From an uncultured Methanomassiliicoccales archaeon (GTDB taxonomy: Archaea; Thermoplasmatota; Thermoplasmata; Methanomassiliicoccales; UBA472), in NCBI GenBank assembly GCA_963695345.1, contig OY968769.1, forward strand, positions 1,568,001 to 1,632,000: a DNA stretch of 64,000 nucleotides, written 5' to 3'. The translations under genes and the position numbers were made by a program. Below, piece by piece: positions 13,302 to 24,909 of the stretch. Positions within the stretch are counted from its first letter, which is position 1, and each line of letters opens with the position of its first letter. Below the pieces are notes generated by a model that was not told the DNA's origin, ran no database searches, and was given only the letters and a program-made list of their open reading frames with translations.

Positions 13302-14705
13302 ATGGGCTTAGCGAATCGGGCTTTCAAAAGTATCTGGAGAAGAAAATGGCGAACTGGCGTGGCTTTGATCGCCATCGCGATCGCCATGGCTATCATGATT
13401 TCAATCCCGGCCGGACTGAATTCCAATCAGGCGGCCGCGGTGAATGCCAGGGACAGCATACAATCGTCCCTTACCGCCATGAACAACGAGATCACCAATA
13501 TGTCCCTCGTCGTCGAGGTGTCCTACGGCCAGTCGGGGAGAGGTGTTCCGGGCGACCGCAACATGACCGTACCTATGACCAACACCGCTTCGACAACAAG
13601 CACGATCACCGCTAGTGACGTTTCGAACATAAGCTCGCTCGAGGGCGTGGTGAGCATTGTCGGGTACATTGAGAAGACGGAGGGGATGCCAGATATGAGC
13701 AGCTTCACTCCAGGGAGTTTCACCCCAGGAAGCAGCGCGACCCGCACCCAGATGAACTTCAGTTCGGTCTACAGCGTATGGGGAATACCGACCGATGCGA
13801 CCATCAGCGGGATAACGCCGACCATCGTCAGCGGAAGGACCATGGCCGCCAATGAGACCGGCGTCGCGGTGATAAGCCAATCCCTGGCGACCAGCTGGGG
13901 TTTGGGCGTTGGAGACACCAAGACGATCGAAGGTATCACGCTGACCATCGTCGGGATAAGCTCAACCGCGACATCCACGAGCTCGACCTCAAGCGCGCCC
14001 GGGGGTTCGACAATGTCCGATCGTGTCGTATATGTGGACCTGGCCCAGGCTCAGTCCATGTATTCGATGTCCGGCACATTCACCAATCTCTACGTCTATG
14101 CCAATTCCACGGCCTATGCGGAGACCATTGCGTTGGAGATCGAGACTCTGCTGTCCAGTTCTACGGTGACCACATCGACGGAGCGCATGGCCCAGTTAAG
14201 CACATCACAGGCACAGATGACCGCATCATTGGCCAGCCAGAATTCCACCTTGGCCCAGACCCAGGCAACTGCCAATCAGGAGACGGTCCTGGCCCTGGTC
14301 GCGACCAGCGCCATCATTCTGCTGATCATGGTGTTCTCTGTCCGGGAAAGGGTCCGTGAGATCGGGGTCATGAAGACCCTGGGCTTCAGCAACAGGAGCA
14401 TTGTCAGCCAGTTCATGGTCGAAGGGGTTTCGGTGACATTGCTTGGTTGCATCGTCGGTTCGATAGTGGGCATCATAGCATATCCCACTCTGTCCAGCCT
14501 ACTGATGCCAACGACCACGTCCAGCACCGGCGCGAACGGTATGCCGGCCGTCCAGACGGCGGCGGCCACGGTGTCCGCCAGTCCGGAGCTCAGCATGGTC
14601 CTGATCGCCTTCGCTGCGGTCCTGGCGATGGGAGCGCTCGGGAGCATATACCCGGCCTGGAAGGCCTCGAGGATCAAACCAGTGGAGGCGCTACGCAATG
14701 AGTGA
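13302..14705 (+). CDS. MacB/FtsX-type ABC exporter permease
   Basis: N-terminal RRKWRTG.. TM helix, Ser/Thr-rich extracellular domain, SVRERVREIGVMKTLG and YPAWKASRIKPVEALR. Confidence 0.92.
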   Translation: MGLANRAFKSIWRRKWRTGVALIAIAIAMAIMISIPAGLNSNQAAAVNARDSIQSSLTAMNNEITNMSLVVEVSYGQSGRGVPGDRNMTVPMTNTASTTSTITASDVSNISSLEGVVSIVGYIEKTEGMPDMSSFTPGSFTPGSSATRTQMNFSSVYSVWGIPTDATISGITPTIVSGRTMAANETGVAVISQSLATSWGLGVGDTKTIEGITLTIVGISSTATSTSSTSSAPGGSTMSDRVVYVDLAQAQSMYSMSGTFTNLYVYANSTAYAETIALEIETLLSSSTVTTSTERMAQLSTSQAQMTASLASQNSTLAQTQATANQETVLALVATSAIILLIMVFSVRERVREIGVMKTLGFSNRSIVSQFMVEGVSVTLLGCIVGSIVGIIAYPTLSSLLMPTTTSSTGANGMPAVQTAAATVSASPELSMVLIAFAAVLAMGALGSIYPAWKASRIKPVEALRNE

Positions 14706-15426
14706 TGACGTGCCAGGTCTGGCGATCAAGGCGGTCGGGATATCCAAGGAGTACGACCTGAAATCCCATAAGGTGCTGGCTTTGAGGAATACAAACTTCG
14801 AGGTCAAGCGGGGCGAGTCCATCGCTATAAAGGGACCGTCGGGTTCGGGCAAGACCACCCTGCTGACCCTGATCGGTCTGCTGGACTCTCCTACCGCGGG
14901 AAGCATCACCATCGACGGGATGGACCTTACCCAGATCCACGAGAGCAAGTTGCATGAGGTGCGTCAGAAGAAGATCGGGTTCGTGTTCCAGAGCTTCAAC
15001 CTGATGCCGTACCTCACGGCCCAGGAAAACGTCGAGCTGCCGATGGAATTGGGCGACCTGACCCGCAGCCAAAGGAAGGAACGGGCGCTCGAGCTGCTCG
15101 GTATCGTCGGTCTTTCAGAACGGGTCGGGCACCGGCCCACCAAGCTCAGCGCCGGGGAACAGCAGAGAGTAGCAATCGCCAGGGCTTTGGCCAACGGACC
15201 CTCGATTCTCCTGGCGGACGAACCGACAGGGAACCTGGACTCGAAATCCAAGAAGGAGATCGTGAAGTTGTTCAACCGCCTCAGGCGGGAACAGGGCATG
15301 ACGGTCATCATCGTAACCCATGATGACAAAGTGGCGAACGACATCGGGAAGGTGATCCGGATGCGCAACGGGAGGCTGCTGACAGAGAAGGACAAGGAGT
15401 TCCTGGAAGACGAAAATGAAGAATAA
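14698..15426 (+). CDS. ABC transporter ATP-binding protein (LolD/MacB type)
   Basis: Walker A GPSGSGKT, signature LSAGEQQRVAIARA, LADEPTGNLD and VTHD. Confidence 0.95.
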   Translation: MSDDVPGLAIKAVGISKEYDLKSHKVLALRNTNFEVKRGESIAIKGPSGSGKTTLLTLIGLLDSPTAGSITIDGMDLTQIHESKLHEVRQKKIGFVFQSFNLMPYLTAQENVELPMELGDLTRSQRKERALELLGIVGLSERVGHRPTKLSAGEQQRVAIARALANGPSILLADEPTGNLDSKSKKEIVKLFNRLRREQGMTVIIVTHDDKVANDIGKVIRMRNGRLLTEKDKEFLEDENEE

Positions 15427-16242: not shown

Positions 16243-17367
16243 TCACTTGGCCGGGGCCTTCTTGGCAGCGGCCTTCTTCGCCACCGCCTTCTTTGCCGGA
16301 GATGACGTCTTCGCGGCTTCCTTCTTGGCAGCAGCCTTCTTTGCCGGGGCCTTCTTCTCTGCTTTCTTGGCCTTTGGTTCGCCCTTGATCTCGAACAGTG
16401 AGCGTATCTCCTTGCCAACGACCTCGATCTTGCTCTCGGCCTCCTTCTTCTCCATGGACTGGAGCTTCTTCATGCCTCCGTTGGCGTCTTTCATCCATTC
16501 CTTGGCGAACTTGCCGGCCAGGATGTCGTCCAGCAGCTTTTCCATGGCCTTCTTGGACTCCTCGTTGATGACCTTGTCGCGGGTGGACAATCCGCCGAAC
16601 TCGGCGGTGTTGGACACGCTGGTCCACATGTGCATCATGCCGCCCTTCTGGATCAGGTCCACGATGAGCTTGAGCTCGTGCAGGCATTCGAAGTAGGCGA
16701 TCTCCGGCTGGTATCCTCTCTTGACCAGGGTGTTGAAGCCCGCCTCGATCAATGCGGTCACTCCGCCGCACAGGACCGCCTGCTCTCCGAACAGGTCCGA
16801 CGTCGCCTCTTCCTTGAAGGTGGTCTCGATGACCCCCGCCTTGGTGGCGCCCAATCCCTTTGCCAGGCACAGCGCCACATTCTTGGCGTTGCCGGTGAAG
16901 TCCTGTTCCACGGCGATCAATGCGGGAACGCCGAACCCTTCGAGGTAGACCTGCCTTTCCATCGGTCCAGGAGACTTCGGGGCCATCATGATGACGTCCA
17001 CGTTCTTCGGGGGCTTGATGACGCCGAAAGTGATAGCGAATCCGTGCGCGAAATCGATGGCCACTCCCTCCTTGAGGTTCGGCAGGATCTCTTCCTTCCA
17101 GACCTGGCCTTGGACCTCGTCCGGGATGAGTATCATGACCACGTCCGCACCCTTGACCGCATCGGCCACTGGTGCTACCTTCATGCCGTTCTTCTTGGCG
17201 TCGTCCCAGGACTTGCCGCCCTTCCTCAGGCCGACGGTGACGTCCAGTCCGGAGTCGCGCATGCACATGGATTGCGCCTTCCCCTGACTTCCGAATCCGA
17301 TCACAGCCACCTTCTTTCCCTTCAGGACCTTCAGGTCCGCGTCAGCGTCATGGTAGATTTTTGCCAT
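16243..17367 (-). CDS. ilvC: Ketol-acid reductoisomerase with Lys/Ala/Pro-rich C-terminal tail
   Basis: IGFGSQG, FAHGF, MAPKSPG, DLFGEQAVLCGG, AYFECLHELKLIVDL and SVSNTAEFG. Confidence 0.97.
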   Translation of the reverse strand: MAKIYHDADADLKVLKGKKVAVIGFGSQGKAQSMCMRDSGLDVTVGLRKGGKSWDDAKKNGMKVAPVADAVKGADVVMILIPDEVQGQVWKEEILPNLKEGVAIDFAHGFAITFGVIKPPKNVDVIMMAPKSPGPMERQVYLEGFGVPALIAVEQDFTGNAKNVALCLAKGLGATKAGVIETTFKEEATSDLFGEQAVLCGGVTALIEAGFNTLVKRGYQPEIAYFECLHELKLIVDLIQKGGMMHMWTSVSNTAEFGGLSTRDKVINEESKKAMEKLLDDILAGKFAKEWMKDANGGMKKLQSMEKKEAESKIEVVGKEIRSLFEIKGEPKAKKAEKKAPAKKAAAKKEAAKTSSPAKKAVAKKAAAKKAPAK

Positions 17368-17443
17368 TTTATTTCACCTATTGCATTTTTCTATTTTTAT
17401 TCCAGATATCCAGTCAAATATAAACATTGTTTGAGCTTATTCC

Positions 17444-19172
17444 TCAGGCGGGGAAAACCCCTGGCGATTCTATCTTGGCTGGCGTATTGGGTTGGCATTC
17501 CTTCCCCCACTTGCACCGGCCCATGATAACGTCCTTGGACGGTTTTCCTCCCGGTTGCATGGGGAGAACGTCCTCCTCTGGGTCCACGTGGATGTCGATC
17601 AGGATGGGAACGTCCGATTTGAGCCCGGCCAGGAACGCCTCGCGGATCTCAGAGGGTCTCTCCACCTTGATGCCGCCTGCCCCGAAGGCCTTGGCCAGCG
17701 CCACGAAGTCAGGGTTTATGTGGAGGTCTGTTCCGGAATAACGCTTGTCATTGAACAGCTTCTGCCACTGCTTGACCATCCCCAGCCATCCGTTGTTTAG
17801 GAGGCAGATCATGACCGGCAGGTCCTCGTTCATGGCGGTGGCGAACTCATGGAAGTTCATCTGGATGCTCCCATCCCCGGCTATGTTAACGACCTGGTTC
17901 TCCCGGTGCGCGTACTTTACGCCAAGAGAGGCCGGGAATCCGAACCCCATGGTCCCGAAACCGCCGCTGGTGATGAAATGGTGCGCATGCTTGATCTTCA
18001 GCAGGTGGGCCGCCCACATCTGGTTCTGTCCCACCTCAGTGGTGACGTAGGCATGCTCGTTGAGCGCCTTTCCCAGCTCATGCATTACCTTCTGTGGCTT
18101 GATGGGCATCTCACTGATGTCATTGTTGCATTCGCAATGCTCGTGCATCTGCTTCATGCGCAGCGACCAGGCGTTGTCCCCCCTGGCCCGCCCCAGTCCC
18201 TTGATGATCTGCTGCAGACCCTTCTTCGCATCGCCGACCAGCCTGACCTTGGTATGGCTGTTCTTCCCCGCTTCCATCGGGTCGATGTCAAGGTGAATGA
18301 TCTTGACGGCCTCTGGCAGCTCCGACGGCAGACCGGAGGAGCGGTCTGAGAACCGGGTGCCTATGGCGACCATCACGTCGCACTCCAGGAACGCCCTCCT
18401 GGCGATCTCCCGTCCATGCATCCCGATCATGCCCATGCACAGTGGGTGCATCTCCGGGATGATGCCCTTGCCCATCATGGTGGTGGCCACTGGCGCCATG
18501 AGCATCTCCGCCAGTTTCATGACTTCATGACTGGCATTGGCCCACATCGCCCCCCCGCCGACCAGCAGCATCGGTCTTTCCGCGTCCTTAAGCAGCTTGA
18601 CCGCCTCTAGCATGCCGGATAGGTCCTCGAACGGAGCCGGGACCGGGAAATTCCTCCTCCATCGCCGTCTCTGTTATCTGGGCCTTCATGACGTCGGAGG
18701 GAAGGTCGATGTGTACTGGGCCCATTCTGCCGTTGAGCGCGATGGCCCAGCCTCTCTTGATCGCCTCTGGGATCTGCTTCACGTCGAGAAGCCGGAAATT
18801 GTGCTTGGTGACGGGCATCATCAACGAGAAGACGTCCGCCTCCTGGAATGCGTTGTTGCCGATCATGCCGGTGGGCACCTGGCCGGTGAGCACGATCATG
18901 GGGGCGGAATCGGCATAGGCGGTCGCCACCCCGGTGACCAGGTTGGTGGCGCCGGGTCCGGAGGTGGCCAGGCAGACGCCCGGTTTGAGCGTGGCCCGGG
19001 CATAGCCGTCGGCCATGTGAGCGGCGCATTGCTCGTGGCGTACCAGAACGTGGTGTATGCTAGAATCGATCAGGTCATCATAGATGGGCAATGCCTGCCC
19101 TCCGGGATAACCGAACATCACGTCCACGCCCTGCCTTTCGAGCAACGTTAAGACCGCTTTGGAGCCTTTCAT
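17444..19172 (-). CDS. ilvB: Acetolactate synthase large subunit, copy B (one +1 frameshift near 18645)
   Basis: FGYPGG, RHEQCAAHMADGYAR, TSGPGATN, FQEAD, VGQNQMWAA and ThDP motif GDGS..LNN. The frame changes at TTT CCC G GTC. Confidence 0.9.
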
Positions 19173-19202
19173 GAACTAATCTCCCATAATCCAGCAATCA
19201 TC

Positions 19203-19230
19203 GAGGACATCCTTGGAAAAAGGATGCCTC
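19203..19230 (-). promoter_or_regulatory. Hairpin downstream of the ilvB-B leader ORF (candidate attenuator)
   Basis: Minus strand GAGG-CATCCTT tttcc AAGGATG-t-CCTC. Confidence 0.6.
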
Positions 19231-19233
19231 TTT

Positions 19234-19302
19234 TTAAATGACAGTCATCACTACGCTTACACGCAAAATCAAGACGCCAGTCTCGCACGTGATGCCTGAC
19301 AC
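19234..19302 (-). CDS. Putative ilv leader peptide B, 22 aa: MSGITCETGVLILRVSVVMTVI
   Basis: GTG start 23 nt after TATA box TTATATAT (19333-19326). Nine of the last 13 codons are Val/Leu/Ile. It is collinear with the leader of copy A. Confidence 0.75.
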   Translation of the reverse strand: MSGITCETGVLILRVSVVMTVI

Positions 19303-19401
19303 AGTTTATCATGATAGAAGGAAGCATATATAACATTTCTTGAAATGAAATTAAGGTTCCCTGGACGGTGCCGCGTCGGACGTCCAGGTAAGAACATCCA
19401 A

Positions 19402-21135
19402 TCATGATGGGAACACCCTCGGCGCCTCTATCTGACTGGGCGCTTGATATCCGCATTCCTTCGACCAGTTGCATCTGGTCCCTTTGATCGACATCGCTGC
19501 AGCCAACTCCTCCCGGCTGCATCGGCAGGACATCCTCCTCGGGATCTGTATGGATGTCGATGATGATCGGTACCTCGGAATCCAGTCCGCGGCGGAACGC
19601 CTCCGCCAGTTCCGAAGGCCTTTCCACCCGCAGTGCCGTCGGCACCATAGGCTTTTGCCAAGGCGACGAAGTCCGGGTTCAGGCCCATGTCGGTACCCGA
19701 ATATCGCTTGTCGTTAAGCAGCTTCTGCCACTGCTTGACCATGCCCAGCCATCCATTGTTCAGGAGGCAGATCATGACCGGCAGGTCCTCGTTCATGGCG
19801 GTCGCTAGCTCATGGAAGTTCATCTGCAGGCTGCCGTCACCGGCGATGTTGACGACCTGTTCTTCGCGGAATGCGTACTTGACCCCTAGGGACGCGGGCA
19901 GGCCGAAGCCCATCGTCCCGAATCCGCCGGAGCTGATGAAGTGGTGCGGATGCTTGATCTTGAGGAAATGGGCCGCCCACATCTGGTTCTGGCCGACCTC
20001 GGTGGCGACATAGGCCTTTTCATCCAGTGCCCGGGCCAGTTCGAACATGACCTTCTGCGGCCGGATCGGTGTCTCGCCCATGTCCAGGTCGCATTCGCAC
20101 TGTTCGCGCATCTGCTTCATGCGGAGGGACCAGGCGCTCTCTCCCTTGGCCCGGCCCAGTCCCTTGATGATCTGCTGCAGTCCCTTCTTCGCGTCGCCGA
20201 CCAGCCGGACCTTGGTGCGGACGTTCTTGCCCGCCTCCATCGGGTCCACGTCCAGGTGGATGATCTTGACCGTTTCCGGAAGGTCGGAGGACAGGCCGGA
20301 CGAGCGGTCTGAGAACCTGGCACCGATCGCGAACATGACGTCGCACTCCAGGAACGCCCTCCTGGCGATCTCCCGTCCATGCATCCCGATCATGCCCATG
20401 CACAGCGGGTGCATCTCCGGGATGATGCCCTTGCCCATCATGGTGGTGGCCACCGGCGCCATCAGCATCTCCGCCAGCTTGGCCACCTCCGGCCCGGCGT
20501 TCGCCCACATGGCCCCTCCGCCGACCAGCAGCATCGGCCGTTCCGCCGCCTTGAGCAGTTTGACCGCCTCAAGGACCCCGAACAGGTCCTCGAACGGCTC
20601 TGGAACGGAGAACTCCTCATCCAGGGCCGATTCGGTCAACGTTCTCCCTCATGACGTCCGATGGGATGTCGATGTGGACCGGTCCCATCCTGCCGTTCAT
20701 GGCGATGCTGAAGCCGCGTTTGATCGCCTCCGGTATCTGAGCCGCGTCCAGAACTCGGAAGTTGTGCTTGCTGATCGGCATCATCAGCGAGAAGACGTCC
20801 GCCTCCTGGAACGCGTTGTTGCCGATCATGCCGGTGGGCACCTGGCCGGTGAGCACGATCATCGGGGATGAATCGGCATAGGCGGTCGCCACCCCGGTGA
20901 CCAGGTTGGTGGCTCCCGGACCTGACGTGGCCATGCAGACGCCCGGCCTGCCGGTCGCCCGGGCATAGCCGTCGGCCATGTGAGCGGCGCCCTGCTCGTG
21001 GCGTACCAGGACATGGTGTATGCTAGAATCGATCAGGTCATCATAGATCGGGATGGTCTGGGCGCCCGGATATCCGAACATCACGTCCACCCCTTGCTTT
21101 TCCAGCAACGTCAACACCGCTTTGGAGCCTTTCAT
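19402..21135 (-). CDS. ilvB: Acetolactate synthase large subunit, copy A (three +1 frameshifts near 20638, 19635 and 19490)
   Basis: Same motifs as copy B. The rejoined frames end ..RCNWSKECGYQAPSQIEAPRVFPS*, homologous to the copy B C-terminus. Confidence 0.85.
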
Positions 21136-21170
21136 GGACTAACCCTCATTTTCCTGAAATGGTTGGAACA

Positions 21171-21188
21171 TCCTTTTCGAGAAAAGGA
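21171..21188 (-). promoter_or_regulatory. Hairpin downstream of the ilvB-A leader ORF (candidate attenuator)
   Basis: Minus strand TCCTTTT ctcg AAAAGGA, at the position equivalent to the copy B hairpin. Confidence 0.55.
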
Positions 21189-21195
21189 GCCTTTC

Positions 21196-21264
21196 TCACA
21201 ATACGAGCAACACTACGTCTACACGCAAAAGCAGGACGGCGTATCGGCATGTGGTGCTCGACAC
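21196..21264 (-). CDS. Putative ilv leader peptide A, 22 aa: MSSTTCRYAVLLLRVDVVLLVL
   Basis: GTG start 22 nt after TATA box TTAATATAT (21295-21287). Eleven of the last 13 codons are Val/Leu. Confidence 0.75.
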   Translation of the reverse strand: MSSTTCRYAVLLLRVDVVLLVL

Positions 21265-21344
21265 AAAAAGTGACAGGTCTTGGAGCATATATTAACGTTT
21301 CTTGATATTCTCCAAGGGCAGGCCGCCATCCGAAAAACTGTCAA

Positions 21345-21995
21345 ATGATTCATTGCATCCCGTCAGAAAAGAACGGCTTTAATACTCCGAAAAGCCTGCC
21401 ATCAGCGTTGTCGCAGTCTGGTCCTTCCGATGAGATCATCCTTGCGGACCATGACCCGGAATGGTCAAGGTCGTTCGAGGCCGAGGCAAGATTGATAGGG
21501 CGGGCATTGGCCGACCTGAATCCGACGATCATCCATATCGGCAGTACGGCGATTCCCGGGCTTTGCGCCAAACCGATCATTGACATCCTGGTGGGTGTGG
21601 GCGACATGAACGACCGCTCGGTCGTCCCGGGACTGGAGAAGATCGGTTATGCATTCCAACCGGAGGCGGGCGAATCGGACAGGCTCTTCTTCCGAAAGGG
21701 CGTCATACGAACCCACCACGTCCATGTGGTCAGGTTTCGCGGTTGGGCCTTCTGGAGACACGTATTTTTCCGGGACTACCTCGTGGCCCACCCGGCTCTA
21801 TGCTCGCAGTACAGCGATCTGAAACGCAGGAGCGCGGAGCAGTATCGATTCGACCGCGCAGGCTACACCGATTCCAAGTCTGGATTCATCGGGGAGGTGT
21901 TGAGGGCTGCGACACTCAGAGCATTTATTACTGTCACTGAGCAATATGCCCCGGGAGGGGGCTCCCCTCAATTGTGTGAATCCGATGTCCTTTGA
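21345..21995 (+). CDS. GrpB/UPF0157 family nucleotidyltransferase-like protein (start uncertain)
   Basis: HIGSTAIPGLCAKPIIDI, HHVHV, FRDYL and Y..LK..YTDSKSGFI. Confidence 0.9.
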   Translation: MIHCIPSEKNGFNTPKSLPSALSQSGPSDEIILADHDPEWSRSFEAEARLIGRALADLNPTIIHIGSTAIPGLCAKPIIDILVGVGDMNDRSVVPGLEKIGYAFQPEAGESDRLFFRKGVIRTHHVHVVRFRGWAFWRHVFFRDYLVAHPALCSQYSDLKRRSAEQYRFDRAGYTDSKSGFIGEVLRAATLRAFITVTEQYAPGGGSPQLCESDVL

Positions 21996-23259
21996 CGTTA
22001 AGGGTATCTTTGATGCGGCGTCCAAGAGCACGATGCTCAATGACCCACACGTCCTCAGGATGTGGGAGCTGATGAACGACAGGTCATTGTTCTCGATGGC
22101 TCCCGAGAAGTTGGAAAGAATGCGTCTGGCCTGCATCCGGTCCTCCCTCGAGTTCTTCCAGAGAAGAAGCCCTCTGTATTCGAGGATGATGCATGAGGTC
22201 GGTGTTGACCCGAACAATGCGGACCTCAAGGATCTCGCCAGATTGGCGGTTCCCTCGGATGTGCTAAGAGGAAACGGACACCAGGAATTGCTGATCGAGG
22301 GGTATGAGACCGGCGGCCATGTATTGAGTTCGAGCGGGACTTCCCAAAGGGACCCCGTTCGGGTGTACCGCAGCCCCCTGGACCTGGCCATGATGGTCCT
22401 GGGAAACACCGCCGTGCTGGAGTATGTCTATGGCGGTCAGATCGAGCGGGATCAGGGTGTCAGCCTTTTCATGGGCCCGGAGCAGCTCAGCGGGAAACTG
22501 ACTTATGTCATCTTCGTGGAGACGGCCTTGGCCAGAAAGGGGATGGCCATCGTGTGGGGCATGGACATGAACGATGTAACCTCCGGTACCGCCTGGAGCA
22601 GGATGGTCCCGAACCGGGCCAGGATGGCTCGTTTCTTCAAGAGCAGGCTTTCCCCGAAAGGGTTCTTCACCGCACCGATAGGGCTCCATATCATGAACCA
22701 GAGATTCGGTTCTCTGGGCAGTGCGGAGTTGCTCTTCAGCAAGATGCGGTTCGGAGCGCCGCCCATCGATCTGGGGAGGGGAGGGTTCGTCATGACCGGG
22801 GGCGGGATGAAAGATTCCACCGACCTGCCAGAGCTAGACGAGATCATCAGATCGGCCAAACACCTCTTCATCTCCCAGGACGCAGGCGGGAATGCCGTCG
22901 AGACGCCATTCATCGATGGTCTCGGAATGACCGAGGCCGCCACATCCATGATGGACCGGCACGGCATGATGGACAAAGTGCCCCATCCGCTCTCCCAGGT
23001 CTTCCTGATGGATCCCCGGACATTCGAGGTGATCGAAGAGGATGGGAAGGAGGGTCTGTTGGGCATATTCAACCCCTTCATAACCTCGTGGATGGAATGC
23101 ATCTATCCCGGCGACATACTCCGCGCTCATCGGTCAGAAAGATACTACGGGAGGGAATTCGTGTTCGTTCGCCGGGTGCGCGCCTTCGACGCTGCCGGTT
23201 CGACCCGGGCCTGTGGCGGGGAACTGGAGGAGCATATCGAGCGTAACGAGATGGTCTGA
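21985..23259 (+). CDS. LuxE/PaaK-like acyl-protein synthetase
   Basis: Adenylation P-loop LSSSGTS, TGGGMK, DGLGMTE, GLLGIFNP, YPGD and C-terminal RACG with a candidate acylated Cys. Confidence 0.7.
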   Translation: MSFDVKGIFDAASKSTMLNDPHVLRMWELMNDRSLFSMAPEKLERMRLACIRSSLEFFQRRSPLYSRMMHEVGVDPNNADLKDLARLAVPSDVLRGNGHQELLIEGYETGGHVLSSSGTSQRDPVRVYRSPLDLAMMVLGNTAVLEYVYGGQIERDQGVSLFMGPEQLSGKLTYVIFVETALARKGMAIVWGMDMNDVTSGTAWSRMVPNRARMARFFKSRLSPKGFFTAPIGLHIMNQRFGSLGSAELLFSKMRFGAPPIDLGRGGFVMTGGGMKDSTDLPELDEIIRSAKHLFISQDAGGNAVETPFIDGLGMTEAATSMMDRHGMMDKVPHPLSQVFLMDPRTFEVIEEDGKEGLLGIFNPFITSWMECIYPGDILRAHRSERYYGREFVFVRRVRAFDAAGSTRACGGELEEHIERNEMV

Positions 23260-23430
23260 GGCCATTCTAGACATGTCTCTGCTATCCGTTCCTTCCGATA
23301 TTCTTATCCATCAAGACACAAATCACGCGTCGGAACGATTCCCGAAACAAAAGAGCATCTTGGGAACAGGGGCCATTTGAACGGACATCGGTTCGCTGGT
23401 TCTTCTGGAACGTCCAATCGAGGTATTCAC

Positions 23431-24909
23431 ATGGCAATAGAACCATACTCGGGCCAAGAACTGGAAACAAGCACGGAGGCTCCCGGCGGCGTCACGGTCA
23501 AAGTGATCAGCCGAATCGGTATGGACCGCTTTCTGGGATCTTCCCGATATATCCAGGAAAAGCTCACCTCCATACCGATCATGGAACGCATCCATGTCGT
23601 AGGCTTGTTGGGGGAGCGGCTGATGGATCGGATGGACCGGGGTGAGTTCCAAGATCTTATCGTCGACCTTTCCGCTTCCACTGGCTATTCAGAAAGGCTG
23701 CTCGAGGGTGAGCTCGGCTTCGTTCCCTCATTCTTGTCCCCAGAAAACCTGTTGAACAGCTTCAAGAGTTCTCTGATCGGGGCGCCATCGAGCCTGGACG
23801 GTTTCACTAATGTTAACAATAACGAATCGATCTGGCATTTGCCGGCCGGGCCGTCCGTGATCATCAGCTCAGGAAATTCGATCATCCCGACCATGGTGCC
23901 GACGGTGATTTCTCTAGTATCCGGGAACGCCACTTTTCTGAAACCTTCGCTATCCAACTGTAGTGGGGTCGTGGAGATATTCCGTACTCTTGATCGATTG
24001 CCGTTCAGCATCGCCCGGGACGCACTGAGAGAAGCATTGGCCATAAGTTACTATTCGCATGACAGCCCGATGCTGAAGCACGTGTTGGGCCAGGCAAAAG
24101 TGGGAGTGATCAACTTCTGGGGAGGCGGGATGGCCAGGTCATCGATCAAGAAACTGGTGACGGAGAATCCCAACCATCCGCGCTTCTTCGTCAATGGGCC
24201 GATGACCGGGGCCGTCGTGATTGATGCCGAATCCGCCTCGCCCCAAAACGCTGAGGGCCTGGCCTTGAACATCGCCCTGTACGACCAGCAATTGTGTTCT
24301 TCGCCTACGATGGTTATGTTCATCGGTCCAAATGATCAGGCATACGAATTCGCCAAGAAGGTCGCGGCCGGTCTGGAGGATATCGGGTCCACCATGCCGA
24401 TGAAAGAGAACACTATTGATGACTATTCTCTGCATGGTGCATGCAGATATGTTCAGATCAAAGGGTCCAAGGTGCTCAGTTCCGCCGACCGATCGAATCC
24501 CTGGACCATAGTCGTTTCCGATAAGGTAAGTGTCCTGGACGATATGGTCATGAGATTCCCATCCATGGTTTTCCATGGAAGGAAGAGATTCATCGAGATC
24601 GTGGCGGTCGATTCACCCGAAATATGCATAGACCTGCTCGGTTCATTGCCTGCCACAAAGGCGTTCGAGGGCATAGACAAGGTTCAGACGGTAGGCGTCG
24701 CACTGGCCGAAGGGAGATTGGAACATACGATACGCAGGTTGGCTTTGAAGGGCGTCTACCGGTGCATCCCGTTGAGGGGAATGGCCATAAGGTCCGCCGT
24801 CGAACCCTATGACGGCACCGGATTGCCCGCTCTATTCACTTACACCTCGTACTTGAGGAAAAAGGACATTTTTCCCAATGGTCAGGTCAATGAAATCCTT
24901 CAGGTGTGA
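23431..24909 (+). CDS. LuxC-like acyl-CoA reductase
   Basis: IISSGN, LVSGNATFLKPS, FWGG, NGP, IALYDQQLCSSP (catalytic Cys), QTVG and C-terminal YDG. Confidence 0.82.
   Translation: MAIEPYSGQELETSTEAPGGVTVKVISRIGMDRFLGSSRYIQEKLTSIPIMERIHVVGLLGERLMDRMDRGEFQDLIVDLSASTGYSERLLEGELGFVPSFLSPENLLNSFKSSLIGAPSSLDGFTNVNNNESIWHLPAGPSVIISSGNSIIPTMVPTVISLVSGNATFLKPSLSNCSGVVEIFRTLDRLPFSIARDALREALAISYYSHDSPMLKHVLGQAKVGVINFWGGGMARSSIKKLVTENPNHPRFFVNGPMTGAVVIDAESASPQNAEGLALNIALYDQQLCSSPTMVMFIGPNDQAYEFAKKVAAGLEDIGSTMPMKENTIDDYSLHGACRYVQIKGSKVLSSADRSNPWTIVVSDKVSVLDDMVMRFPSMVFHGRKRFIEIVAVDSPEICIDLLGSLPATKAFEGIDKVQTVGVALAEGRLEHTIRRLALKGVYRCIPLRGMAIRSAVEPYDGTGLPALFTYTSYLRKKDIFPNGQVNEILQV

Follow-up and report, generated by a model that had tools for sequence, protein, structure and literature searches.

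Valine-, isoleucine- and leucine-rich leader reading frames upstream of ilvB as candidate amino acid sensors in Methanomassiliicoccales

Leader-peptide attenuation, documented in Bacteria, is the textbook form of regulation through the coupling of transcription with translation. The same coupling occurs in Archaea, but with a eukaryote-like RNA polymerase and different terminators. A leader of ilvBNC in Corynebacterium glutamicum was reportedly treated by Morbach in 2000. Judging from passages of PMC10272879, this leader and the Corynebacterium ilvB-II motif are the nearest described element to the one presented here; the same text calls the representatives of the ilvB-OMG motif bacterial. That upstream open reading frames (uORFs) act in archaea is stated in general terms in a passage of PMC10219788, and passages of archaeal ribosome profiling (Ribo-seq) studies mention possible uORFs, with no example of the present kind among them (PMC11456600, PMC10117724). 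Here we describe leaders found in a 64,000-nucleotide (nt) stretch of an uncultured Methanomassiliicoccales archaeon (contig OY968769.1, positions 1,568,001 to 1,632,000; hereafter the window), in which each of two tandem ilvB copies is preceded on the minus strand by a short open reading frame (ORF) ending in codons for valine, isoleucine and leucine (V/I/L). A sequence-only reading of this DNA had taken the ORFs for leader peptides of a ribosome-mediated attenuator and knew of no established archaeal ilv leader-peptide system. Our literature search likewise found no archaeal amino acid leader-peptide system, with most subscription journals and supplements outside its reach, and a prior description is possible. 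Among candidates for bacterial-style sensing of amino acids by leader peptides in Archaea, we regard the element as the best to date.

Comparison of sequences across relatives established the restriction of the element to ilvB, the conservation of its ORF, the periodicity of its codons, the spacing of the ORF from its promoter, and two covarying hairpins, P1 and P2. We infer the transcription start site, translation of the leader, stalling of the ribosome and the whole of the output step. That the leaders are translated and sense branched-chain amino acids, by whatever output, is quite likely; the fuller reading that we favour, in which such a leader acts through a post-transcriptional output, has a probability of roughly 0.4.

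Leader ORFs, promoters and hairpins

The 22-codon ORFs with GTG starts that the sequence-only reading had placed before the two ilvB copies were confirmed in their coordinates, peptides and V/I/L counts (Table 1). V/I/L residues account for 11 (leader A) and 9 (leader B) of the final 13 codons, and the stop codon lies 60 nt (A, ATG at 21135) or 61 nt (B, ATG at 19172) from the ATG of ilvB. Rare codons are frequent: GTA, TTG, ATT and CTT, each of which makes up 10-14% of its own amino acid family in the genome, supply 7/11 of the V/I/L codons in leader A and 6/10 in leader B. Leader A contains valine and leucine with zero isoleucine codons, leader B all three amino acids with 3 isoleucine codons; within the genus, isoleucine codons number 0-2 in leader A and 3 in each of the 8 leader-B copies. 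The difference in content may endow the two isozyme genes with different amino acid specificities.

The genome taken alone gives a weak signal. In the regions upstream of ~2400 predicted genes, 26 ORFs at ~12 loci have at least 6 V/I/L among their last 8 residues, and leader B itself falls under this cut; short ORFs with V/I/L tails are thus not beyond chance in the source genome, and the case therefore rests on relatives. The IlvB N-terminus was used to search 41 genomes of the order, and the 300 nt upstream of 57 ilvB copies were taken. All 41 genomes contain ilvB, with a tandem pair in every genome of the genus. An ORF of 20-26 codons with a V/I/L-rich tail, ending 50-70 nt before ilvB, was present in 51/57 upstream regions, well beyond what chance would give, so conservation of the uORF among Methanomassiliicoccales relatives, which the earlier reading had named as a check, was borne out. 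The ORF and its V/I/L tail are conserved in 15 of the 17 genera sampled, and the element reaches six families of the order. Of the 6 regions without the ORF, five come from family f7 (two in G030, two in G034 and one in G038) and one from G014, where it precedes the downstream copy of the tandem pair. Every genome of the genus has both leaders: orthologues of leader ORF A were found in 6/6 other genomes holding the locus, and the leader B peptide is identical in 7/8 genomes. Type 1 leaders, which include both of those in the window, start with GTG and precede the main ilvB clade, while type 2 leaders start with ATG and precede a second ilvB paralogue in four families (for example MNAALLLVRNSLLVSVQVLVV).

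Coding tests were carried out on 48 distinct ORFs (40 type-1 and 8 type-2) that were left once identical ones had been removed from the 51. Frame 0 was open in 40/40 type-1 and 8/8 type-2 ORFs, compared with 6/40 and 21/40 (type 1) or 0/8 and 4/8 (type 2) for the shifted frames. The V/I/L fraction of the last ten codons was 0.67 in type 1 and 0.75 in type 2, and 0.08-0.21 in the other frames (for type 1, 67% compared with 21% and 18%). Moreover, U occupied 69% (type 1) or 78% (type 2) of the second codon positions in the last eight codons, and 12-27% of positions 1 and 3. The frame is kept at lengths of 20, 21, 22, 23, 24 and 26 codons, with the stop codon always at the foot of the next hairpin, and alignment column -2 is 95% V/I/L with six codons in use (GTA, ATT, GTC, GTT, CTG and CTT). 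Identity within the genus was 0.85 for the leader, 0.61 for third positions of ilvB and 0.34 further upstream.

The conserved promoter element reported before each GTG is present, at 21305-21288 and 19343-19326. Both promoters have in common the block TCAAGAAA(C/T)G plus TTAATATA or TTATATAT. From the first T of the TATA 8-mer (21295 in A; 19333 in B) the distance to the G of the GTG is 31 nt, and across leader types 1-4 (types 3 and 4 come from outside the order) the start codon follows the beginning of the 8-mer at 30-31 nt. With this fixed spacing the RNA would start at the start codon, and hence the ORF would be translated leaderlessly or not at all; the leader ORF is probably leaderless, in agreement with the earlier suggestion. 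The single RNA run found, a wetland metatranscriptome containing 0.05 of the query words, gave contigs in which pieces of relatives cover 21053-21219 and 19074-19233, such contigs being blind to starts, ends, strand and ribosomes.

Two hairpins, P1 and P2, were recognised. P1 arises from pairing of the opening six or seven codons with the V/I/L codons, which makes the whole ORF one long hairpin whose foot holds the start codon; N, D, H, Y and T, the residues of the N-terminus, are those encoded by the complement of GUN and AUN codons. P2 begins 0-5 nt past the stop codon, and most families retain its two arms, GAGG(A)CAUCC and GGAUGUCCUC. The 105 nt of leader B that comprise P1 and P2 fold at -37.9 kcal/mol (z -3.51), with 0/200 shuffles as good, and a run of T5-T6 occupies the P2 loop of all 8 leader-B copies. 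The 69-nt ORF of leader A has a minimum free energy (MFE) of -20.3 kcal/mol (z -1.23), which is weak alone and draws its support from the family. Covariation was tested with a hand-set 24-pair structure on alignment A2, which holds 43 distinct type-1 elements. Of its cells 81.3% were paired, compared with 37-49% when partners were slid by 1-3 columns; 17/24 pairs changed on both sides, doubly changed cells numbered 87 (15-52 in slid controls), and the structure score was reached by 0/500 shuffles. An independent check of P1, the duplex between the 5' arm and the V/I/L arm, gave a mean z of -2.4 relative to shuffles, with 82% below -1.5. As judged from these comparisons, P1 and P2 are conserved hairpins with covariation, and conservation of the leader is largely RNA-structural, a point that the first reading had missed.

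Searches beyond ilvB returned little else. A covariance model of type 1 recovered only the two ilvB leaders from their own genome (B, 115.1 bits, E 1.3e-33; A, 81.1 bits, E 1.4e-22). In 151 evenly sampled genomes of the class its hits were confined to G000, G008 and one borderline site, and f7 gave 0/16. A blastn-short search of the genome with both 240-nt leaders found nothing besides the leaders and the shared start of ilvB. Scanning 17000-23000 with Rfam release 15 at E up to 10 gave no match at 19198-19343 or 21160-21305; the best matches in this 6-kb stretch were chance-level, snoRNA-like (resembling small nucleolar RNA) and within ilvB. A scan of the genome for other leader ORFs with amino acid runs (His, Trp and others) produced nothing convincing. 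A 17-codon ORF (MRLMVAGADLALLVLIA) at C1:40-93 (+) of the genome, outside the window, has a TATA-like 8-mer 33 nt before it and sits 68 nt upstream of an ORF of 894 amino acids (aa).

Two further observations concern the hairpins. The second ilvB paralogue (L040-L045, L048 and L049; ~60% identical) has its own ATG leader ORF of 21-26 codons, and in these type 2 leaders the V/L run is placed after P1 and followed by a GGGG..CCCC hairpin. The 16S rRNA 3' tail of the source genome reads GGAUCACCUCCU (minus strand), with which the 3' arm of P2 in leader B (GGAUGUCCUC, 19203-19212) shares GGAU..CCUC, while the P2 5' arm resembles a Shine-Dalgarno (SD) site. The likeness may reflect functional mimicry, or a GAGG/CCUC clamp may yield it as a by-product.

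Proposed mechanism and rival explanations

The claim of ribosome-mediated attenuator logic found no support. Antiterminator-type pairings were sought against shuffled controls, and none of five candidates was supported (mean z 0.07 to 0.5): the P1 loop with the P2 3' arm (0.07), the V/I/L arm with the P2 5' arm (0.37), the 5' arm with the P2 3' arm (0.41), the 5' arm with the spacer (+0.5), and the V/I/L tail with the downstream region as an extension of P2 (+0.35). Pairing of the V/I/L arm with the ilvB initiation region was equally unsupported in types 1 and 2 (z 0.11), where the predicted partners of the SD site are local and no duplex sequestering the ribosome-binding site (RBS) emerged. 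Some signal came from one alternative pairing only, in which the 3' arm of P2 meets the ilvB initiation region (mean z -0.55; z was below -1.5 in 22% of leaders). No U run follows P2 in any of the 51 leaders and they contain no hairpin plus oligo-U terminator. Neither the alternative structures nor the conditional terminator of a classical attenuator was thus found in the sequences, which do not demonstrate one, and since it fails on both counts the element files as a leader-peptide-like sensor and not as a member of the attenuator family. We considered and rejected another small ORF, which begins in the 3' arm of P2, as inspection by eye showed that its frame and stop are not kept in relatives.

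In the reading that we favour, each ilvB copy would have its own promoter and its transcript would probably begin at, or 1-2 bases from, the GTG. A ribosome loading at the 5' end would meet the run of V/I/L codons, many of them rare, just before the stop codon, and a shortage of charged Val-, Ile- or Leu-tRNA would stall it within the run. Because the ORF is built into P1 and P2 stands at the stop codon, the position of the ribosome would decide which hairpins exist. A stalled ribosome would cover the 3' arm of P1, leaving P1 open and P2 folded or nicked only at its base, while for a ribosome at the last codons or the stop P2 would have to melt; after release both hairpins would refold and the 5' end would be shut, P1 also tying up the 5'-terminal start codon. 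The read-out would be post-transcriptional, through initiation at the SD site of ilvB and/or the life-time of the mRNA, and not through an oligo-U terminator. Finishing ribosomes would free an anti-SD-like strand (the arm that ends in CCUC), or else lower ilvB initiation or mRNA life-time, which stalled ones would prevent. In favour of such a read-out count the lack of a U run after P2, the pairing signal between the P2 3' arm and the ilvB initiation region, a drop in modelled SD accessibility (0.39 to 0.31 with a ribosome on the stop), the P2 3' arm of the type-4 relatives, which meets the ilvB SD site, and the bacterial precedent of the mycobacterial polycysteine ORFs (10.1101/834739).

A number of points weigh against this reading. 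The start of the leader ORF has no SD site, GUG is a poor leaderless start codon, and leaderless genes look rare in the genome, a TATA box being found 29-34 nt before the candidate start of 30/3803 long ORFs and an SD site before 1077. Codon positions 1, 2 and 3 are equally conserved within the genus (0.84/0.86/0.85), and in G006 two Val codons have become Ala with compensating changes in the 5' arm. These two observations suggest that RNA pairing constrains the leader at least as strongly as the peptide does; given the equal codon positions, the 'synonymous or conservative' divergence between A and B that the first reading described cannot by itself serve as evidence of coding. The fold of leader A (z -1.75) was matched by 11/200 shuffles, and its predicted MFE structure is a rival hairpin that takes in the stop codon (21198-21178). 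Alignment A2 has many near-identical rows, its cells are not independent, and the tested structure was drawn from the same sequences. RNAalifold on the MAFFT alignment A2 returned only 8 pairs (-2.55 kcal/mol) because that alignment is not structural, and P1 and P2 were then placed by hand using per-sequence pair probabilities. The output step is affected too. In type 1 the SD site of ilvB lies ~20 nt beyond P2 with only local pairing predicted, and its modelled accessibility under ribosome masks (51 leaders) was 0.39 free, 0.41, 0.39 and 0.34 with a stalled ribosome and 0.31 with one at the stop, a weak predicted shift that is small and inconsistent between genomes. A terminating ribosome would open P2 only briefly, which makes the read-out weak as proposed. 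Lastly, repeated loading would be hampered by P1, whose closing of the 5' end suggests a one-shot, co-transcriptional sensor as a better fit than a steady-state translational one.

A serious rival, although on balance an unlikely one, retains the same sensor and makes its output premature transcription termination, the true attenuation of the first proposal. Translation would be open only to a ribosome that loads before polymerase has left the leader, since P1 later shuts the 5' end; polymerase would pause at the U4 tract that lies in frame within the P1 loop and so become coupled to the ribosome; and read-through into ilvB would be set by the place of the ribosome when P2 and the spacer are made, with transcripts ending at the U tract of the P2 loop or via aCPSF1/FttA. 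The architecture, a uORF inside P1 followed by P2, matches that of the Corynebacterium ilvB-II motif in passages of PMC10272879. The start codon is sequestered by P1; TTTTG, a possible pause site, occurs inside 36/51 leader ORFs, always in frame as NTT TTG; and T5-T8 runs lie 9-13 nt past the stop codon in 13/51 leaders, all 8 leader-B copies included. Factor-dependent termination needs no U run, and termination in this genome may be largely of this kind given that the signals at its gene ends are weak: T5 occurs within 80 nt of the stop codon at 11% of 420 convergent ends and 5% of shuffled ones, the gene-end MFE is -16.05 compared with -14.96 shuffled, and no usable terminator model emerged. 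What counts against termination is that all five antiterminator-type pairings lacked support and that P2 is never followed by a U run. A run of T5 or more between stop codon and ilvB occurs in 14/51 leaders (13 of them in the P2 loop) and is absent from 37/51. Termination at hairpins is not known for archaeal RNA polymerase, and from P1 and P2 alone we could derive no logic that gives read-through on starvation.

The remaining rivals dispense with sensing by translation. An untranslated structured cis-regulatory RNA (a riboswitch, or a protein or tRNA site), with V/I/L as the by-product of a G/U-rich arm, appears improbable, since U at every third base (69% compared with 12% and 27%) is not something that a helix arm calls for, and this reading would leave unexplained why one frame is open in 40/40 leaders through lengths of 20-26 codons with its stop at the foot of P2. 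It would account for the covariation of P1 and P2, for the equal conservation of codon positions, for the tolerated Val-to-Ala changes with pairing kept, for the P2 arm sequence conserved across families and for an ORF with no SD site. However, the V/L run of type 2 is outside P1, the four non-alignable types share ORF features and little else, the leaders have no Rfam match, and the element stands only before ilvB, whereas metabolite riboswitches usually serve several genes according to a passage of PMC10272879. A small hydrophobic peptide with its own function (for example, membrane-associated), merely co-transcribed with ilvB, would agree with the hydrophobic C-terminal half and its conservation in amino acid class, but the N-terminal halves are free to vary and reflect the complement of the V/I/L codons, the hydrophobic stretch has only ~7-13 residues, the peptides of types 1-4 are unrelated in sequence and the linkage is strictly to ilvB, so we rate it very improbable. 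Hardly credible is the last possibility, that the leaders have no function and are left-over similarity from the ilvB tandem duplication. Conservation and covariation contradict it: the copies do share the promoter and the first coding bases, yet both leaders are retained in every genome of the genus, the element is found in six families, and its identity is 0.85 compared with 0.34 just upstream.

Gene neighbourhood and wider distribution

The source genome is one contig of 2.56 Mb with 56% G+C, 85% complete by marker genes. On the minus strand of the window the order is promoter, leader A, ilvB-A, promoter, leader B, ilvB-B and ilvC (Table 1). The downstream genes had been named correctly: both ilvB products contain TPP_enzyme_N/M/C domains and are large subunits of (biosynthetic) acetolactate synthase, the intact orthologue in G007 scoring 690.8 bits with TIGR00118 (cut-off 538.35), and the nearest named relatives of the N-terminus are uncultured Methanomassiliicoccales metagenome-assembled genomes (MAGs; 98% and 93% identity). 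The description of the two genes needs correction, since both copies are broken here by 1-nt indels. Their ORFs are interrupted (172+403 aa and 194+389 aa), those of genus relatives are all open (575-576 aa), and relative to G007 ilvB-A has 1-nt insertions near 20635, 19633, 19489, 19485 and 19477. With a single contig that is only 85% complete, and with intact frames in relatives, the interruptions fit assembly indel errors, or else recent pseudogenes. The tandem copies are 76% identical in their upstream regions and 65-100% identical in the coding region (60-nt windows), and by this comparison the two ilvB copies with their leaders stem from one duplication.

Table 1. Features of the ilvB cluster, in coordinates of the window
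Feature	Position	Strand	Basis
Leader ORF A, GTG start, 22 codons + TGA (21198-21196), peptide MSSTTCRYAVLLLRVDVVLLVL	21196..21264	-	sequence and orthologues
Leader ORF B, GTG start, 22 codons + TAA (19236-19234), peptide MSGITCETGVLILRVSVVMTVI	19234..19302	-	sequence and orthologues
Promoter of leader A: TCAAGAAACG, resembling a B recognition element (BRE), then TATA box TTAATATA	21288..21305	-	same block and spacing in relatives
Promoter of leader B: TCAAGAAATG, then TATA box TTATATAT	19326..19343	-	(near-)identical in 8/8 genus genomes
P1 of leader A, codons 2-7 with Val/Leu codons, CTTTTG (21231-21226) in apical loop	21204..21260	-	family covariation
P2 of leader A (GGCUCCUUUU / AAAAGGAUGUUCC), 5 nt past stop	21165..21191	-	homology, alignment A2 columns 85-115
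P1 of leader B, GTG to last codons, TTTTG (19268-19264) between two small apical hairpins	19238..19302	-	MFE and centroid agree
P2 of leader B (GAGGCAUCC / GGAUGUCCUC), T5 loop, 4 nt past stop	19203..19230	-	arm conserved across families, compensatory changes
SD GAGGG (21147-21143) and ATG (21135-21133) of ilvB-A	21133..21147	-	read from sequence
SD GGGAG (19185-19181) and ATG (19172-19170) of ilvB-B	19170..19185	-	read from sequence
ilvB copy A	19400..21135	-	domains; 3' end approximate; orthologues intact, 575-576 aa
ilvB copy B	17444..19172	-	domains; broken near 18600 in present assembly
ilvC, ketol-acid reductoisomerase, next in cluster	16243..17367	-	KARI_N 4e-71, KARI_C 1.2e-57

A 159-aa ORF at 19169-19648 (-), which traverses leader B together with the promoter and terminates, as ATGA, on the start of ilvB-B, was rejected as a gene; it is the shifted C-terminal frame of ilvB-A. 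The divergent neighbours encode a GrpB-family protein (21345-21995, +) and a LuxC-like acyl-CoA reductase (23377-24909, +), and genes of an ATP-binding cassette (ABC) transporter (FtsX/MacB-type permease and ATPase) lie at 13302-15426.

The search was then widened to other families of the class, with 40 more regions upstream of ilvB and the cut of at least 6 V/I/L in the last 8 residues. All 14 regions of family f10 contained a V/I/L-rich ORF of ~26-32 codons (for example MLESAGQGKLVPILVVLGVLVDLRILRP), found in G097 only as a 31-codon frame started by TTG. Family f30 had such an ORF in 2/2 regions and f13 in 2/8, with 4/8 of the latter sharing a homologous ORF that ends in ..LLH(V/F)I.., whereas a V/I/L leader ORF at this cut was found in 0/4 regions of f24, 0/1 of f31 and 0/11 of f7. 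The V/I/L leaders of other orders cannot be aligned with those of Methanomassiliicoccales and have little in common with them beyond the ORF features. Here too the ATG follows a TATA box at ~30 nt, the ORF is spanned by P1, and the stop codon is contained in a strong hairpin. In the regions L055-L069 and L093 (f10/f30) and L072-L075 (f13), probably leaderless V/I/L-rich ORFs stand before ilvB. Type 3 has its stop codon within the 5' arm of the strong hairpin, and in type 4, from relatives outside the order of the window, the 3' arm of P2 runs straight into the SD site of ilvB. In f24 (L079-L082), which has no V/I/L ORF, a conserved GTGAG.AGGTTTATCTAACA.CTGTGGCG followed by a T run is located ~70-90 nt before ilvB.

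A background scan of 76 prokaryote-wide ilvB loci gave scores of at least 6 in 2 Methanomassiliicoccales, 6 spirochaete and 2 other loci; among the 68 unrelated loci, L121 and L173 were the only unexplained scores of at least 6, and three Methanothrix and three Bathyarchaeia loci scored 3-4. The spirochaete MAGs (L100, L115, L116, L126, L130 and L132) have V/L-rich uORFs of 33-39 codons (for example ..LLRVVLLVVVLVLVPG..) located 136-162 nt upstream of ilvB, which look like bacterial ilv leader peptides. A broader claim would be that archaeal leader-peptide sensing occurs widely in Thermoplasmata, through four or more unrelated types of ilvB leader in several orders, and that it works without the bacterial switch logic through an undescribed output. 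We hold this to be doubtful. In the absence of alternative-hairpin and oligo-U logic the output would be of an undescribed kind, for which ribosome-gated access of aCPSF1/FttA, or a hairpin held open only by the stalled ribosome, would be candidates.

Comparison with known systems

A conserved V/I/L leader before ilvB offers a testable entry to the question of whether archaeal ribosomes report tRNA charging, and by which output. The four leader types, and the paired A and B leaders with their differing amino acid content, are natural variants for experiments, and the element could be an amino-acid-responsive part for methanogen engineering.

With the enterobacterial ilv, leu, trp and his attenuators the leaders share an ORF that carries a run of end-product codons, with rare codons among them. 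The enterobacterial attenuators differ in their 1:2, 2:3 and 3:4 hairpins and oligo-U terminator, and their regulatory codons lie in segment 1; here the regulatory codons form the 3' arm of the first hairpin, and there is neither a 2:3 pairing nor a terminator. In Escherichia coli the ilvBN and ilvGMEDA leaders differ in amino acid content, a parallel to the A/B pair. A metabolite riboswitch differs from the present element in that here there is a frame periodicity, only two sites, both before ilvB, and four unrelated sequence types.

In mycobacteria, leaderless polycysteine ORFs give translational control by stalling on Cys codons, as passages of 10.1101/834739 describe. Both systems would place a sensory ORF, leaderless in mycobacteria and probably so here, at the 5' end of the operon mRNA. 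In the mycobacterial case the stalled ribosome blocks an RBS-sequestering duplex (10.1101/834739, same passages), whereas the V/I/L tract of type 1 shows no such pairing (z 0.11); a hairpin on the SD site, as with mycobacterial RBS control, occurs only in the type-4 relatives.

The ilvB-II element of Corynebacterium stands in another domain of life and is read by a different RNA polymerase, and kinship with it was gauged by the negative Rfam scan only. According to the passages of PMC10272879, its P2 is a U-tailed intrinsic terminator and pairing of the P1 loop with P2 forms the antiterminator, whereas here P2 has no U run and that pairing has a z of 0.07. As described in the same passages, the two nevertheless share an RBS-less uORF at the 5' end, rich in isoleucine, leucine and valine codons and located inside a hairpin P1 that is followed by a hairpin P2; in both, each ilvB gene has a single element and the length of the uORF is in every case a multiple of three.

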